18,052 nucleotides of DNA from an uncultured Oscillospiraceae bacterium (GCA_964409165.1 CAYPCH010000079.1:1-18052); one strand, 5' to 3'; counted from the stretch's first letter, positions 6,572-14,791 are shown. Program-made: numbers and translations. Notes: a model not told the origin generated them from the sequence alone.

Positions 6572-6646
6572 TTAAATTCCATAATAAAAGCAATCTCTAA
6601 GGATATCCCGTATTATATTGTAATGTTTTATAAAATCATTAAACAT
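6572..6646 (-). pseudogene. Truncated duplicate of the 5' end of the WYL regulator gene (24 codons, [24 protein letters not shown]-stop), with its promoter and RBS copy
   Basis: Nucleotide sequence 6587-6646 is near-identical (2 mismatches) to 14616-14675, which encodes the N-terminus of the 444-aa WYL protein. The reading frame ends after 24 codons. Confidence 0.6.
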
Positions 6647-6708
6647 GAAACTGCTCCTCACATAAATTCATGTCCTAATTCTATCACAAACAATTTGAAA
6701 TCAAAACA

Positions 6709-6738
6709 CAAACCCAGTAAAGTAATTTGCTGGGTTTG
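6709..6738. promoter_or_regulatory. Palindrome CAAACCCAG-N12-CTGGGTTTG (candidate operator) between the truncated WYL fragment and the divergent RlaP promoter; paralogous copy at 14739-14768
   Basis: Perfect 9-bp inverted repeat. The 14739-14768 copy reads CAAAACCAG-N12-CTGGTTTTG, i.e. the C-to-A change in one arm is matched by a G-to-T change in the other arm. Confidence 0.5.
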
Positions 6739-6799
6739 CACTTTAAATTCCTCTAATACACTTATGTAATGTAAAACCTTTATTAAACTCAATATAATA

Positions 6800-6808
6800 T
6801 GGTATAAT
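6800..6808 (+). promoter_or_regulatory. Extended -10 promoter element (TGgTATAAT) for the RlaP operon; RBS AGGAGAA at 6827-6833
   Basis: TGnTATAAT at 6800-6808, 30 nt upstream of the ATG at 6841. Weak -35. Confidence 0.4.
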
Positions 6809-6840
6809 TTAAAACAAAAGTTGTTTAGGAGAAATAAAAT

Positions 6841-7614
6841 ATGCGGGATATTATACTCAACAAGCTCAGTGCCATTGAAAAGGAAAATAACATCAAAATC
6901 CTCTATGCTGTTGAATCCGGTAGCAGAGGTTGGGGGTTTGCATCTCAAGACAGCGACTACGATGTACGGTTTATATACACTCATCCCACTGACTGGTACC
7001 TTTCCATTGAAGATAAAAAGGATTTTATTGAGGTTCCAATCAATGACTTGTTGGATATAAACGGTTGGGATATCAGAAAGGCTTTTCTACATTATAAAAA
7101 ATCAAATCCTACATTAATGGAATGGCTAAGTTCACCTATAGTGTATATAGAAAACTATAGTGCTGCACAGAGAATGAGAGAATTACTGCCTTTTTACTTC
7201 TCGCAGGTGCCTACAATCTATCACTATCTTCATATAGCAAGAAATAAGTTCGAAGAGGTTATTGCAACAAACCAAGTCAAAATCAAACATTATTTTTATA
7301 TTTTAAGACCCATCCTTGCATGTATGTGGATTGAAAAGAACAATGCGACTCCTCCAATGGAGTTTTGCAAGCTAATGGCTGAACAGCATTTGGATAGTGC
7401 TCTGCTTAATGAAATTAATAAGCTGCTTGAGAAAAAGACTTCTGGTTTGGAAATCGATATCGAACCAAAAAGCTCTATTATTATTGATTTTCTCAAAAAT
7501 AAGATAACTCAATTTGAGCAACATCTCAAGACAGTCAAGAAAGAAAAAACATCCGGTTATGAAGCCTTAAATCTTCTATTTCGTGAAACACTTAAGGAAA
7601 TCTGGGGCGATTAA
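6841..7614 (+). CDS. Polymerase-beta-fold nucleotidyltransferase, PF10127/RlaP-like (RNA-ligase-associated NTase family)
   Basis: Minimal NTase motif ESGSRGWGFASQDSDYDVRF (GS ... DxD), followed by a helical domain (NPTLMEWLSSPIVY). This family is known, from my recollection of the RNA-repair gene-neighbourhood literature, to co-occur with RtcB. Confidence 0.7.
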   Translation: MRDIILNKLSAIEKENNIKILYAVESGSRGWGFASQDSDYDVRFIYTHPTDWYLSIEDKKDFIEVPINDLLDINGWDIRKAFLHYKKSNPTLMEWLSSPIVYIENYSAAQRMRELLPFYFSQVPTIYHYLHIARNKFEEVIATNQVKIKHYFYILRPILACMWIEKNNATPPMEFCKLMAEQHLDSALLNEINKLLEKKTSGLEIDIEPKSSIIIDFLKNKITQFEQHLKTVKKEKTSGYEALNLLFRETLKEIWGD

Positions 7615-7652
7615 GAAAAATGATATATCCCAAAATTTAAAGGAGTTAGTGT

Positions 7653-11703: not shown

Positions 11704-11833
11704 TTTTTTGCTCCAACTTTCCAGGCATACCTTTTATAATAAAAATAAAAGGCACCGCGAGACCATTTAGAAATCTCCGCATAAGGAACAGGAACAATAT
11801 TATTATACAGGTATAAAATACTAATTGACAGAC

Positions 11834-11870
11834 AAAAAGTTTGCAACCTTTGTCACGTTGCAAACTTTTT
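11834..11870. terminator. Bidirectional intrinsic terminator (14-bp stem AAAAAGTTTGCAAC/GTTGCAAACTTTTT) immediately downstream of the phosphatase-like gene
   Basis: Perfect inverted repeat with 9-nt loop, flanked by a T-run on the plus strand (TTTTTATATAAT) and TTTTTG on the minus strand. Followed on the minus strand by a TGTATAAT -10-like element (11802-11809). Confidence 0.5.
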
Positions 11871-11876
11871 ATATAA

Positions 11877-12212
11877 TTAAAACATGTCTATGTATTCAGA
11901 AACGCGAGATATTAATATTTCAATCAATTCCTCATCCATAAAAGAATAGTCATCTGATATATCCAGAATGATTACTTTTTTATCCTTGAGGATATCTCCA
12001 AATTTTTCTTGAATTCTTCTCAAGTGTTTTTTCTCCATTACAAAGATTATGTCTGCCCAGCCAATATGACCGCCTGTCACTTTAATTCTAGCATTACTTT
12101 CTGTTCCAGCTGATCTTACTTCGTGACCATTAGTACCATTAAAAATCTTCTCAGCCGTAAGACTTCTCCATTTATTTCTACTGCATAAAAATAGTACCTT
12201 TATGTTAATCAC
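11877..12212 (-). CDS. Small LMW-PTP-fold phosphatase (COG4551-type predicted protein tyrosine phosphatase / ArsC-like P-loop)
   Basis: N-terminal P-loop VLFLCSRNKWRS (C-X5-R-S) as in low-molecular-weight PTPs and arsenate reductases. Only 111 aa. Stop codon overlaps the start region of the WYL gene (ATGA-type coupling at 12209-12212). Confidence 0.65.
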   Translation of the reverse strand: MINIKVLFLCSRNKWRSLTAEKIFNGTNGHEVRSAGTESNARIKVTGGHIGWADIIFVMEKKHLRRIQEKFGDILKDKKVIILDISDDYSFMDEELIEILISRVSEYIDMF

Positions 12213-13357
12213 AATCCATTCTTTTCATTATACATACCTACAGACTTTTTTACTCTTGCCACTATCTCATCTGCAATTTTTTGAGGAGATAAGACTTTCA
12301 CATAAGGTCCTAGTGAAATAATATTCCGTATCAGATTCTCTTCCTCAAAAAGATAATAATTGAGTCGTATTTCATATTTATTATCCCCCAGATATCTGGC
12401 AGTTCTCTCCATTCCTGAAAAGCACATAAAGCACCTTTCCATTGCTGCCTTTTTATCCGTTACCTCCAAAATCACCGGCTCTTCTGAGTATTTCTGTTCA
12501 AAAAGCAGTTTTCTTGCTGCTTCTCTATTAATACCTACGTCTTCATCTACTATTCTTAGATCTGATAAAGTAAAAATATTGGCCATGATAGGCCGATTAT
12601 CATCCAATGAGTACATGGAGACACGAAATCTCCCATCTCTCATAGAGTATTCAATACTGACCGGCAGTGCCAGCCTGTTGCTATATACATTACCTTTTTT
12701 GTCTGTATTGCTGTACCTTATTGGCTTTTCCTGTATAAGTGCATTCAATATCAGCCGGAAATTCTTTTCATATGTTTCCTGCTCGACAATTGCAGGTAGT
12801 TTTATTATATTTGTGAGTTCAAAATACTCGTCTCTTATAGGAGAATCTACGTCAGCAAGCTCATTTTGAAGTTTGTCGAAGGTTTCTTTACTAAGAACCA
12901 TTCTGACCCCTTCCTTCTCTAAAAGTGCCTTCAACCAGGCTTTTTCAAGTATAGAAAAACGTAACGGGAGAGGCGGCTGGTCGTTTCGCTCCGCTACACT
13001 GCTCGCCATGCGTCCCGGCTGGTCGTTTCGCTCCGCTACACTGCTCGCCATGCGTCCCGGCTGGTCGTTTCGCTCCGCTACACTGCTCGCCATGCGTCCC
13101 GGCCTACCAGCATTCTCTATAGAAGGATAAAACATACCATCCTTTTCAGTTAATAGGTTTAAATTCTCATCAGTTTCACATTTATTTAAAACAAGGTCTG
13201 CAAATGACTTTTGATTCTTACCAATAACCTTCTGTTCAAACTCCCCCTCATCGACTATCCTCAGTATTTCACTTTTTGCTTTTCCATCGGCACACTCATT
13301 GATAATTCTGAATATCAACTGAAAGTACCTGTTTTTAACTTCACTGAACAACTCCAT
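12209..13357 (-). CDS. WYL-domain regulator paralog 1 (N-terminal region - 3x14-aa repeat linker - WYL - C-terminal WCX-like domain)
   Basis: WYL-like beta-rich segment ([34 protein letters not shown]) and C-terminal extension resembling WCX. Probable start at internal ATG 13357 (MELFSEV), overlapping the upstream gene's stop by 17 nt; the 13384 start in the supplied ORF is also possible. Confidence 0.55.
12974..13103. repeat. In-frame tandem repeat, 42 bp x about 3.1 copies, about 67% GC, encoding ([14 protein letters not shown])x3 inside the WYL paralog
   Basis: Exact period-42 repetition (cggctggtcgtttcgctccgctacactgctcgccatgcgtcc). GC content roughly double that of the flanking sequence. 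Confidence 0.9.
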
Positions 13358-14675
13358 AAGATAAAAGCATCTCCTTCCAGTCATTAAGAATCTTCTCTGC
13401 CAGTTCTTTGCTTTCTAAAACTCTCATATACCCTGCATATCCCCTGATCCAAGGAATAAGCTCACCACTATCGTTTACCCGGATAGTTATGTGATACCAA
13501 CCATCTTTAATCTTCTCCAATATACCATTAGGTGCTTCGTTCATAATCCTTTCAATAACATATCCTTCTGTTTCTTCATCAATAACAACTTCAAGTTTTA
13601 CATTTTCCGGTTCTTTTCTGCCTTCGAGAGATACACTAGACCAACTGCAGCACATCTGTTTATCATATACCTCACCATAATCCTTCCTCACGAAAGTATC
13701 CTCCAATATTTCTATACTCTCTATCCTATCAAGCCTTGATACTATACAATTTTCATAGTTATCAAAGGATACCAGATAAAATCTCCCGTGACGGACATCA
13801 TATCTTATTTTATAAGGACATAAAACTTTGCTGCTAGGCTGGTCGCAAGCAGGGCTTTCTGCTAGACTATGCAACCCGGAACGGTTATCCTGATTTTTAG
13901 GCAAGTGGTAAAAAATCTTTACTTTATTCCCCTTGTGTATAGCTTTTAAAATCTTCCACAACACCTGCTCTTCAATTACAGGGTGAAAATGCACATGCCT
14001 ATAATTAAAGTAATCAATATCATTTACACTGATTTTCCGTTCGAAATGCGTATAATCCTTGAGAGTCTGTTCGCAGAAGTAGCCTGCGACTATAGGACAG
14101 ACAATGTTCTTAAATAAACAAATAGCTGTAAACAATTCTCTTAACTCTTTGTTATCGAGTGTTTTCAACATATCAGGTGCAACGGAATAGAACTTTGTCC
14201 TCTTTACTACTTCACAGGTTAAGATTCCAAAGCTTGTACACATTTCTGAAAGTTTTCTTGCAATGGTCTTGCTGCTGATTCTGTCATAAGATAAATGTCC
14301 TCCTTGTGCCAATCCATCTTCTATTTCACTTAGGGAACAAGGGCCATTTTGTGTCTGGAGATATAATAGGATAAAAAAATATGTCAGCAGGTCATTACGT
14401 GTGAAACTCTTGGTCATATAGGTATTTACAAGAAAATTATCTGAATGCCTCATAAAGTCATACGTCAGACTAAGAAGCTTATATCTGCCGTCTTTATCAA
14501 CCTTGATATATTCCTCTTCCACATACTGCTGTATACGACGCATTTCATAACTAACTTTTCTTGAACTGACATTTCGTTTGCTTTCGAGACCATCTCTCGA
14601 AAAGCATCCGTAAAGGAAACAATCTCTAAGGATATCCCTTATTATATTGTAATGTTTTATAAAGTCATTAAACAT
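13341..14675 (-). CDS. WYL-domain transcriptional regulator (wHTH - WYL - WCX architecture; PafBC/CapW/BrxR-like)
   Basis: HTH-like segment ([32 protein letters not shown]). WYL core ([38 protein letters not shown]). C-terminal WCX-like domain. RBS AGGAGC 7 nt upstream. Confidence 0.7.
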
Positions 14676-14791
14676 AAAACAGCTCCTCTACGTAAATCCA
14701 TGTCCTTATTCTATCACAAACCAATTTGGAATAATAAGCAAAACCAGCAAAGTAATTTACTGGTTTTGTATTTTAAATTCTTACAGTTTAT
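14603..14791. repeat. Right copy of the direct repeat; contains the functional promoter/RBS and first 19 codons of the intact WYL gene
   Basis: See partner at 6572-6750. The right edge of the repeat abuts the stop of the Tpt1 remnant (14795). Confidence 0.75.

Follow-up and report, generated by a model that had tools for sequence, protein, structure and literature searches.

What does an RtcB RNA ligase gene do in one predicted transcription unit with a soluble Band-7/SPFH protein and a large tRNA-like RNA? The question is raised by an 18,052-nt stretch of DNA from an uncultured Oscillospiraceae bacterium (GCA_964409165.1 CAYPCH010000079.1:1-18052; hereafter the window), in which these three elements are accompanied by two WYL-domain proteins, two RlaP nucleotidyltransferases and a small phosphatase. 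The locus is likely to be an RtcB-type RNA-repair cassette that pairs the Band-7/SPFH protein with the tRNA-like RNA. Its most valuable feature is the RNA itself, a covarying molecule of ~479 nt that carries permuted tRNA-like modules, is absent from Rfam 15, and is paired with a soluble SPFH protein. Comparison with 79 relatives provides the boundaries of this RNA, a covariation-backed secondary structure, and a division of the locus into a core (RNA and SPFH) and an accessory set (WYL pair, RtcB, RlaP, Tpt1, TatD). Domains were called with Pfam profiles at gathering cut-offs and with PADLOC defence models, and the central features are as follows.

11318-11796, minus strand: structured RNA of ~479 nt, delimited by conservation and covariation
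11757-11780, minus strand: hairpin P1 of the RNA, from covariation
11724-11756, minus strand: hairpin P2 of the RNA, from covariation
11638-11703, minus strand: tRNA-like module 1, YrlA type, from a relaxed Rfam scan and covariation
11562-11627, minus strand: tRNA-like module 2, a circularly permuted tRNA, from covariation and ARAGORN after rotation
11530-11539 with 11318-11327, minus strand: closing helix of the 3' domain of the RNA, from covariation
10132-11271, minus strand: soluble SPFH/slipin protein of 379 residues (Band_7, E 2e-31, 110 bits against a cut-off of 23.6)
8861-10045, minus strand: RtcB RNA ligase (PF01139, E 6.8e-65, 220 bits against a cut-off of 27)

The RNA is neither an ordinary tRNA nor a member of a known RNA family. 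ARAGORN finds no tRNA in the native sequence order, and nowhere in the window does a match to an Rfam 15 family attain the gathering score. In the 545 bp that separate the phosphatase gene from SPFH, a relaxed Rfam scan returns sub-threshold matches to the core of YrlA (RF02553; 33.3 bits against 69, E 2.3e-5, window positions 11640-11701, model positions 23-85) and to the tRNA model (22.2 bits against 29). An earlier sequence-only reading of this DNA had proposed a tRNA-mimic RNA here; the tRNA-like modules are real, but the size of a tRNA is wrong for an RNA of ~479 nt.

Loci from 79 genomes were retrieved with an alignment of the SPFH protein, and the RNA was sought in them by iterated nhmmer searches. 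In essentially all of these loci the SPFH gene is immediately preceded by a homologue of ~400-520 nt, which is always in the sense orientation and ends ~40-65 nt before the SPFH start codon. The loci span Clostridia, Paenibacillus, Thermoactinomycetaceae, Sporomusa, and Spirochaete genomes. Conservation extends over the whole intergenic region, beyond one tRNA-sized piece, and the RNA would be either a 5' leader or a processed non-coding RNA (ncRNA). No further copies occur in ~1.5 Mb of flanking sequence, one Paenibacillus contig (L041) excepted. This contig holds three copies of the RNA (776-1160, 2956-3346 and 8521-8885) and two SPFH paralogues, and its first RNA copy has no adjacent SPFH open reading frame (ORF) in the gene map.

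The fold was evaluated on E-INS-i and per-domain MAFFT alignments. RNAalifold yields a poor structure on the whole nhmmer alignment, and the domains were tested separately because whole-RNA MAFFT alignment mis-registers the clades with one module against those with two. In hairpins P1 and P2, 10 of 15 pairs are compensatory (68 sequences). Module 1 contains 20 pairs, 9 of them compensatory, including all 5 pairs of the outer stem (13 sequences). For module 2, 92.7% of cells are paired in 67 sequences as against 30-50% with slid partners, and none of 500 shuffles matches this value. The 3' domain has 31 pairs, 27 of them compensatory, and is 89.9% paired versus 36-51% with slid partners (68 sequences); its covariation score of 0.559 compares with 0.11-0.17 and is again matched by 0 of 500 shuffles. 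The shuffle control ignores relatedness among the sequences, while the slid-partner control keeps it and points in the same direction. Judged by covariation, which is found in every domain tested, this is a folded RNA.

Both modules rearrange the parts of a tRNA. Module 1 consists of an outer stem (CCUUA/UAAGG), a T-arm, an acceptor-like hairpin closed by GCAA, and a D-arm; it has no anticodon loop. Module 2 consists of a T-arm, a loop-closed acceptor stem, a D-arm, and an anticodon arm (CUCGA-CUUUUAA-UCGAG), which is the arrangement of a tRNA circularly permuted at the variable loop. When the sequences are rotated at the acceptor loop, ARAGORN at its default threshold calls tRNAs in 22 of 80 modules, compared with 1 of 68 native RNAs and 0 shuffled sequences, and the rotated module 2 of the window is called as tRNA-Lys(UUU). 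The Paenibacillus RNAs carry the module-2 type only, and the clade of Clostridia and Thermoactinomycetaceae, to which module 1 is confined, carries both modules.

The anticodon-arm stem CUCGA/UCGAG (window 11562-11578) hardly changes across Bacillota, in contrast to the 7-nt loop of module 2, which varies even among close relatives (UUU, GUU, GUC, GAA, UUC, UCC, GUA, GCU, GCA, UCU, and others). Among six RNAs with a mean pairwise identity of 83.5%, variation affects 6 of the 7 loop columns against a background of 36% (p 0.01); the Paenibacillus clade shows no enrichment of anticodon-loop variation. Loop hypervariability was considered as strong evidence for a decoy and set aside, being modest in one clade and absent in another.

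The 3' domain is one long interrupted stem with a variable apical region, closed by AGAAUCCUC pairing with GAGGAUUCU. Two invariant blocks, 11468-11478 (GCGGAUACCGG) and 11339-11356 (CCUCAAGC.GCAYUCCGC), flank a covarying helix of this domain. By eye, GCGGA of GCGGAUACCGG can pair with UCCGC of CUCCGC, a pairing that excludes the adjacent covarying helix; an alternative fold or a tertiary contact through GCGGA/UCCGC is possible.

The gene that accompanies the RNA encodes a soluble SPFH/slipin protein. The ORF as listed spans 10132-11331, and the true start is probably the ATG at 11271, because homologues are ~372 residues long. No hydrophobic or transmembrane segment is found in the protein (maximum Kyte-Doolittle hydropathy of 1.1 over 19 residues), which bears out the earlier suggestion that it lacks a membrane anchor; stomatin and HflK/C differ in this respect, as an N-terminal membrane anchor or hairpin is typical of them. 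The predicted structure is beta-stranded from residue 2. An AlphaFold (AF2) model with a mean pLDDT of 77 comprises three five-stranded beta repeats (residues 1-177), the SPFH domain, and long helices. Sequence search of the PDB returns stomatin relatives, and Foldseek aligns the model with stomatin (E 4e-14), HflK/C, erlin, prohibitin, flotillin, and the vault protein MVP. The first five of these form rings or cages.

The relation to MVP is one of analogy. The full SPFH model matches MVP chains at ~1e-9 over 420-480 alignment columns, and a model of the N-terminal region by itself (pLDDT 92) lacks a significant match in the PDB (MVP at E 0.087, probability 0.38); homology of the N-terminal repeats to MVP was therefore demoted to analogy. 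Like the vault, the window encodes a soluble protein with beta repeats, an SPFH fold (the MVP shoulder), long helices, and an association with an ncRNA, but the protein does not reach half the size of MVP, and the likeness does not amount to membership. Full-length homologues of 35-39% identity occur in Burkholderia, Photobacterium, E. coli, and Citrobacter. No homologue is present among 50,697 phage records, and apparent plasmid carriage was discarded since the "plasmid" matches are chromids or mis-labelled chromosomes. Across the loci compared here, RNA and SPFH form the invariant core.

The remaining parts of the island are the accessory genes and the signals that would organise its transcription.

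13341-14675, minus strand: WYLb, predicted transcription regulator with helix-turn-helix (HTH), WYL and WCX parts, first gene of unit 1 (PADLOC WYL, E 4.7e-25)
12209-13384, minus strand: WYLa, a WYL-WCX paralogue (PADLOC WYL, E 1.3e-8)
11877-12212, minus strand: low-molecular-weight protein tyrosine phosphatase (LMW-PTP)-like CX5R phosphatase of 111 residues (LMWPc PF01451, E 1.7e-6, 28.8 bits against a cut-off of 23.2)
11834-11870, minus strand: terminator-like hairpin with a T-run that closes the WYLb-WYLa-phosphatase unit, by reading of the sequence
11802-11831, minus strand: sigma-70-like promoter CTGTCA-18-TATAAT with TG before the -10 element (10 of 12 consensus matches)
8790-8826, minus strand: predicted intrinsic terminator after RtcB, with a 12-bp stem (-20.1 kcal/mol) followed by U6
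6841-7614, plus strand: RlaP1 nucleotidyltransferase (PF10127, E 8e-90, 301 bits, full length)
7653-8654, plus strand: RlaP2 (PF10127, E 1.8e-20, 74 bits, residues 25-173)

The sequence-only reading had listed these elements, and ORF calls, Pfam, PADLOC, and the relaxed Rfam scan place all of them where it put them: two RlaP proteins, RtcB, SPFH, the phosphatase, two WYL proteins, and the tRNA-like RNA. RtcB, PF10127, Band_7, and LMWPc score above cut-off; WYL is recognised through PADLOC, with the Pfam WYL scores below cut-off.

The island is predicted to form three transcription units. The sequence of unit 1 reads WYLb, WYLa, phosphatase, and terminator-like hairpin; that of unit 2 reads promoter-like site, ~479-nt RNA, SPFH, RtcB, and intrinsic terminator; unit 3 consists of RlaP1 and RlaP2 and is convergent with unit 2. 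The hairpin at 11834-11870 was not flagged by the terminator scan, its loop being 9 nt against the scan maximum of 8. The sigma-70-like site keeps its position in the alignment of the Clostridia clade and is the proposed promoter of the RNA-SPFH-RtcB transcript. The terminator scan finds no terminator-like site in the interval between RNA and SPFH.

RtcB joins 3'-phosphate or 2',3'-cyclic phosphate ends to a 5'-OH. The RtcB gene of the window follows SPFH on the same strand after a gap of 86 bp, and its translation contains the motifs DIGCG, GGGNHF, APHGAGR, and HSGSRHLG, to which we assign the catalytic roles (nucleophilic His, Cys/His metal ligands) assumed from E. coli and Pyrococcus RtcB. 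RtcB of the Paenibacillus loci is only ~25% identical to that of the window, which suggests ligase displacement.

RlaP1 carries the motif GSRG...DSDYD, of the Pol-beta GS...DxD type. RlaP2 carries GSIAYG...DTSDID; its PF10127 match covers profile positions 17-164 only, and it consists of a divergent RlaP N-terminal half followed by ~160 residues to which no domain is assigned. On the evidence of their translations, the ligase and nucleotidyltransferase domains and catalytic motifs are intact. The RlaP family was named in Burroughs & Aravind 2016 for its linkage to RNA ligases, according to a citing paper (PMC12776372), in agreement with the earlier description of these proteins as an RNA-ligase-associated family. 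Pseudomonas RlaP adds nucleotides to RNA 3' ends, including those of damaged tRNA, before ligation (PMC12776372).

Linkage of the genes was determined by calling and clustering ORFs around SPFH in all loci, and counts refer to the 60 loci flanked on each side by 5 kb or more. The WYLa-WYLb pair is present in 20 of these, RtcB in 17, RlaP in 14, Tpt1 in 7, and the phosphatase in 3. WYLb and a repair gene (RtcB or RlaP) occur together in 18 loci, WYLb alone in 3, a repair gene alone in 5, and neither in 34, giving an odds ratio of 41 (p 3e-8, without correction for phylogeny). The WYL pair, RtcB, and RlaP are, by these counts, a co-occurring accessory set that is sometimes joined by Tpt1, TatD, or an AAA ATPase, and the remaining neighbours of the SPFH loci are unrelated housekeeping genes. 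The co-occurrence that the sequence-only reading had proposed to tabulate holds for the WYL pair, which tracks RtcB and RlaP, but not for the phosphatase, which is sporadic, nor for the 34 loci that consist of RNA and SPFH alone.

The association is conserved beyond a single genome. The WYL pair, SPFH, RtcB, and RlaP are found together in Clostridia and in Paenibacillus, in rearranged orders. In L002, L005, and L009, RlaP precedes the SPFH gene in divergent orientation; in the window it is downstream and convergent. Paenibacillus loci have it between SPFH and RtcB, and their WYL pair is divergent from the RNA. Intact domains and motifs, together with this conserved co-occurrence, uphold the earlier idea of an RNA end-healing and sealing cluster centred on RtcB. 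Two metagenome contigs from an anaerobic digester (L080 and L081) are 99.7% identical to the window and lack window positions 6813-8524, and with them RlaP1 and all but the final 130 bp of RlaP2. That this end of RlaP2 is kept indicates a recent deletion in these contigs and not an insertion in the window.

WYLb and WYLa are a predicted pair of transcription regulators. In Pfam, WYLb of the window matches WCX (E 7e-14) and WYL below cut-off (E 1.5e-3); the WYL score of WYLa is likewise below cut-off, and WYL and WCX are found across both family alignments. In the WYLb family, WCX is present in 26 of 26 members, WYL in 25, and HTH_11 in 19, although HTH_11 gives no score in WYLb of the window itself. 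The WYLa family has WYL in 13 and WCX in 5 of 25 members, and an HTH in none of the 25. By these profile matches, only WYLb belongs to an HTH-bearing family. The two families align over WYL-WCX in hhalign (probability 97.6%, E 3e-12), which makes them paralogues, and WYLa is the probable partner of WYLb.

In mycobacteria the DNA-damage response is activated by PafBC, a heterodimer made up of two paralogous WYL-domain proteins. The window resembles PafBC in encoding two adjacent paralogous WYL-WCX proteins, and differs in that the similarity is marginal (weak profile matches of the WYL proteins to the PafBC chains, E 0.002 to 0.03) and in that WYLa has no HTH. By analogy, a PafBC-like heteromer with a single DNA-binding subunit would be a reasonable inference.

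WYLa contains a perfect tandem repeat at 12974-13103 (42-bp unit, 3.1 copies) that lies in frame and encodes a 14-residue peptide three times. On L080 and L081 the WYLa start is called further in, giving proteins of 368 and 382 residues, and WYLa of L080 has one repeat copy fewer (368 versus 382 residues). The number of 42-bp repeats varies between near-identical strains.

The locus belongs to a described kind of system, arguably as a variant, and its description in the sequence-only reading as "not a described operon type" does not hold for the core combination. Burroughs & Aravind 2016 reported that RtcB has as neighbours a Band-7 protein and a predicted, strongly tRNA-like "band 7-associated tRNA", as relayed in Wang et al. 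2018 (bioRxiv 10.1101/312249), where this tRNA is said to be exchanged at times with Rsr/YrlA. PMC12776372 links RlaP to the same work, and an SPFH protein, PaFlo8, is embedded in the rtc locus of P. aeruginosa (PMC13086221). The literature searched contained no further work linking SPFH with RtcB. Like the 2016 system, which is known here through these citing papers, the window has RtcB beside a Band-7/SPFH protein and a predicted tRNA-like ncRNA, a linked RlaP, and a modular "syntax" in which components are shuffled or displaced. It differs in that the tRNA-like part lies inside a ~479-nt covarying RNA with a YrlA-type module and a 3' stem domain, in that the modules are circularly permuted and not ordinary cloverleaves, and in its apparent regulation by a WYL pair. 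Module 2 is probably the reported band 7-associated tRNA.

Further likenesses are found in Y-RNA and Rtc systems. The Salmonella rsr-yrlBA-rtcBA operon also carries an ncRNA inside an RtcB operon, with a tRNA-like domain comprising a T-arm, a closed acceptor stem, and a D-arm. Module 1 matches the core of YrlA, which has been proposed as a repair cofactor or scaffold with Ro60. In contrast, the Ro-binding stem of YrlA (positions 1-22 and 86-114) is unmatched in the window RNA, no Ro60/TROVE gene is present among the genes called on the sibling contig L080, and the RNA of the window is about four times longer and would have SPFH as its partner. The Rtc systems of E. coli, Salmonella, and Pseudomonas share RtcB as the ligase, and SPFH genes also occur in rtc loci of P. 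aeruginosa. No RtcR or RtcA is found among the ORFs of the window or the genes of L080, and the window is without a sigma-54-like promoter; a WYL pair and a sigma-70-like promoter stand in place of RtcR and a sigma-54-like promoter.

An RtcR-linked version of the locus is found in Enterobacteria. Citrobacter freundii has a divergent rtcR, then ~450 bp of intergenic sequence, slipin, and a nucleotidyltransferase gene, and E. coli STEC639 has the same slipin-nucleotidyltransferase pair. The intergenic regions of both (L086 and L087, ~6700-6990) contain a sigma-54-like site (TGGCACG...CGCA) followed by a leader of ~250 nt with a T-arm-like UGGGUUCGAUUCCCA and an adjacent hairpin. The nhmmer profile of the Bacillota RNA does not detect this enterobacterial leader, and homology is not established; the leader is probably a shorter, diverged counterpart of the RNA. 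By gene order, the WYL pair occupies the regulatory position held by RtcR in Citrobacter. The earlier proposal of two WYL regulators in place of RtcR holds for position; the WYLa family shows no HTH.

These comparisons suggest how the cassette might work. The RNA would form the 5' part of the operon transcript, as Y RNAs do within Salmonella rsr-yrlBA-rtcBA, and would bind the soluble SPFH protein, which could oligomerise to a ring or cage by analogy with stomatin, HflK/C, and the vault shoulder. The resulting ribonucleoprotein (RNP) would serve as a scaffold or cofactor of the Ro60-YrlA type that gathers tRNA-shaped substrates and tRNA-handling enzymes. RlaP would re-add nucleotides to trimmed 3' ends, and RtcB would seal 3'-phosphate or 2',3'-cyclic-phosphate ends to 5'-OH. 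The WYLb/WYLa pair could act in a PafBC-like manner as a damage-sensing transcription switch that replaces RtcR, and the small phosphatase and a decayed Tpt1 would be optional end-healing extras.

Several points weigh against this mechanism, and the main one concerns the core. In 34 of the 60 well-flanked loci, the 6-7 kb around RNA and SPFH contain neither RtcB nor RlaP nor a WYL gene, so the core pair may serve a wider role than ligase-coupled repair, or a different one. That the RNA binds SPFH is put forward from co-occurrence only, and an RNA-binding role for the N-terminal beta repeats, which have no significant structural relative, is a guess. The RlaP pair and the phosphatase are dispensable, because the former is deleted in a sibling contig and the latter is sporadic. 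The band 7-associated tRNA was still without experimental validation in 2018, according to 10.1101/312249, and no experimental test of any pair of SPFH and tRNA-like RNA was found in the searchable literature.

If the RNA does bind SPFH, the locus would offer insight into what soluble SPFH proteins do, into why RNA-repair operons repeatedly recruit tRNA mimics (YrlA with Ro60, the window RNA with SPFH), and into whether WYL domains sense RNA damage as the CARF domain of RtcR does. A large covarying RNA is in any case missing from Rfam despite its occurrence across Bacillota, with a shorter likely analogue in Enterobacteria. A wider proposal, possible though on balance doubtful, is that P1/P2, one or two permuted tRNA-like modules, and the covarying 3' stem define an uncatalogued class of large RNA that is the obligate partner of a cage-forming soluble SPFH protein in a Ro/Y-RNA-like or vault-like RNP. 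The band 7-associated tRNA of 2016 would then be one module only, and the anticodon loop may be a bait or guide for ribotoxin-damaged tRNAs.

Other explanations concern the RNA before they concern the genes. The ~479-nt element could be a cis-acting leader of the riboswitch or T-box kind that controls expression of SPFH and RtcB and is not a trans-acting RNP cofactor, and the signal it senses could be tRNA in uncharged or damaged form, a protein that binds tRNA, or a cut in the anticodon loop of the element itself. Its constant sense orientation ~40-65 nt before the SPFH start, with no terminator between, is what a leader would show; the long-range helix that closes it stops shortly before the ribosome-binding site, and the GCGGA/UCCGC pairing seen by eye, incompatible with the neighbouring covarying helix, hints at alternative structures. 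However, neither a terminator/antiterminator nor a pair that sequesters the ribosome-binding site was found in it, its size and multi-domain covarying fold are closer to RNP RNAs (Y RNA, OLE) than to known leaders, and one of the L041 copies has no SPFH ORF beside it. A purely leader role is unlikely on this evidence, and leader and RNP roles are not mutually exclusive. The tRNA-like module could alternatively be a bait or decoy for anticodon nucleases, whose cleavage would spare tRNAs or yield a 2',3'-cyclic-phosphate fragment that switches on the WYL regulators. A near-invariant anticodon stem under a loop that differs across loci fits such a bait, as does the loop variation in the six related RNAs (6 of 7 columns against 36%, p 0.01), and several of the loop anticodons (Lys, Asn/Asp/Tyr, Glu) belong to what we take to be known ribotoxin targets. 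Activation of RtcR by cleaved tRNA halves provides a precedent (PMC7790460). The enrichment is missing from the Paenibacillus clade, and the test itself is small and without phylogeny correction; module 1 has no anticodon loop at all, and nothing points to cleavage of the RNA. The bait is for these reasons distinctly improbable.

A defence role, in which SPFH, RNA, and RtcB would be offensive or a trigger in anti-phage defence or abortive infection and not agents of repair, draws on the surroundings of the locus. The Wadjet operon JetABCD and a macro/Tpt1 pair are neighbours of the island, defence loci commonly contain WYL regulators (from the annotation of the PADLOC model), and Uma2, a TatD nuclease, or a cassette of SEC-C, ABC-ATPase, and CYTH proteins is found at other SPFH loci. 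Such a role has a slender chance at best: no PADLOC model matches SPFH, RtcB, RlaP, or the phosphatase, a toxin-like effector is absent, the 50,697 phage records hold no homologue, and many of the loci lie amid housekeeping genes. That the genes are chance neighbours in a variable island is scarcely credible. Neither the phosphatase nor the Tpt1 remnant nor Wadjet is a conserved neighbour, and the RlaP pair is an indel between sibling contigs, but RNA and SPFH stand together in essentially every locus retrieved, the combination of WYL pair, RtcB, and RlaP returns in distant Bacillota with its gene order changed, and the RtcR-linked version exists in Enterobacteria. Chance adjacency is contradicted for the core set and stands for the phosphatase, Tpt1, and Wadjet only. 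The repair cassette pairing SPFH with the tRNA-like RNA is the reading we prefer.

The phosphatase is an accessory gene. It has a P-loop near its N-terminus (C10-SRNKW-R16-S in the translation), and its LMWPc match covers residues 6-39 only, or profile positions 1-41 of 144, in a protein of 111 residues compared with ~140-160 for the usual domain with its DP general-acid loop. The ~111-residue family is well conserved in its alignment, and homologues occur in unrelated contexts in Paenibacillus konkukensis and Pseudobacteroides cellulosolvens. The phosphatase was rejected as a conserved component, being present in 3 of 60 well-flanked loci with homologues elsewhere unlinked; it appears sporadic and linked in the closest relatives only. 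The sequence-only reading was right to see a CX5R phosphatase, with its P-loop and LMWPc match, but its place in a conserved toolkit is not borne out.

The surroundings of the island were also misjudged in that reading, which set it between a Tpt1/macro module and a Wadjet operon. Both lie on one side: a Tpt1 remnant, a macro-domain gene, JetD, and the end of JetC occupy 14795-18052, and a two-component system lies opposite, at 4473-6556. The Wadjet operon JetABCD is complete on L080. The Tpt1 gene is damaged.

14795-15177, minus strand: Tpt1/KptA pseudogene, with remnants in two frames

The N-terminal 20 codons of Tpt1 (15115-15177) are in a different frame from the C-terminal 109 codons (14795-15124), and ~55 codons are gone, so that the Tpt1 ORF amounts to no more than the C-terminal two-thirds; from its sequence, Tpt1 is a pseudogene with an internal deletion. 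The Tpt1/macro pair was rejected as a functional part of the locus here, as the Tpt1 of the window is broken. An intact Tpt1 is located downstream of RtcB in several Paenibacillus loci.

Some minor observations concern neighbouring genes. A 49-codon ORF (MKIKGWNRSGDQKRHIF...; 15328-15477, minus strand) lies between the macro gene and the Tpt1 remnant, is also called in L080 and L081, and has no Pfam match on record. Three Paenibacillus loci with RtcB and the WYL pair (L020, L026, and L047) carry a cassette ~1.3-3.8 kb downstream of SPFH that encodes a SEC-C-motif protein, an ABC/AAA_15-AAA_21 ATPase, and a CYTH-domain protein; this cassette might be a further accessory or defence module. Outside the island, a tandem repeat at 2292-2377 (21-bp unit, 4.1 copies, 75% match) encodes KCMHKPNK-type repeats in the N-terminal region of a rhodanese-domain protein.

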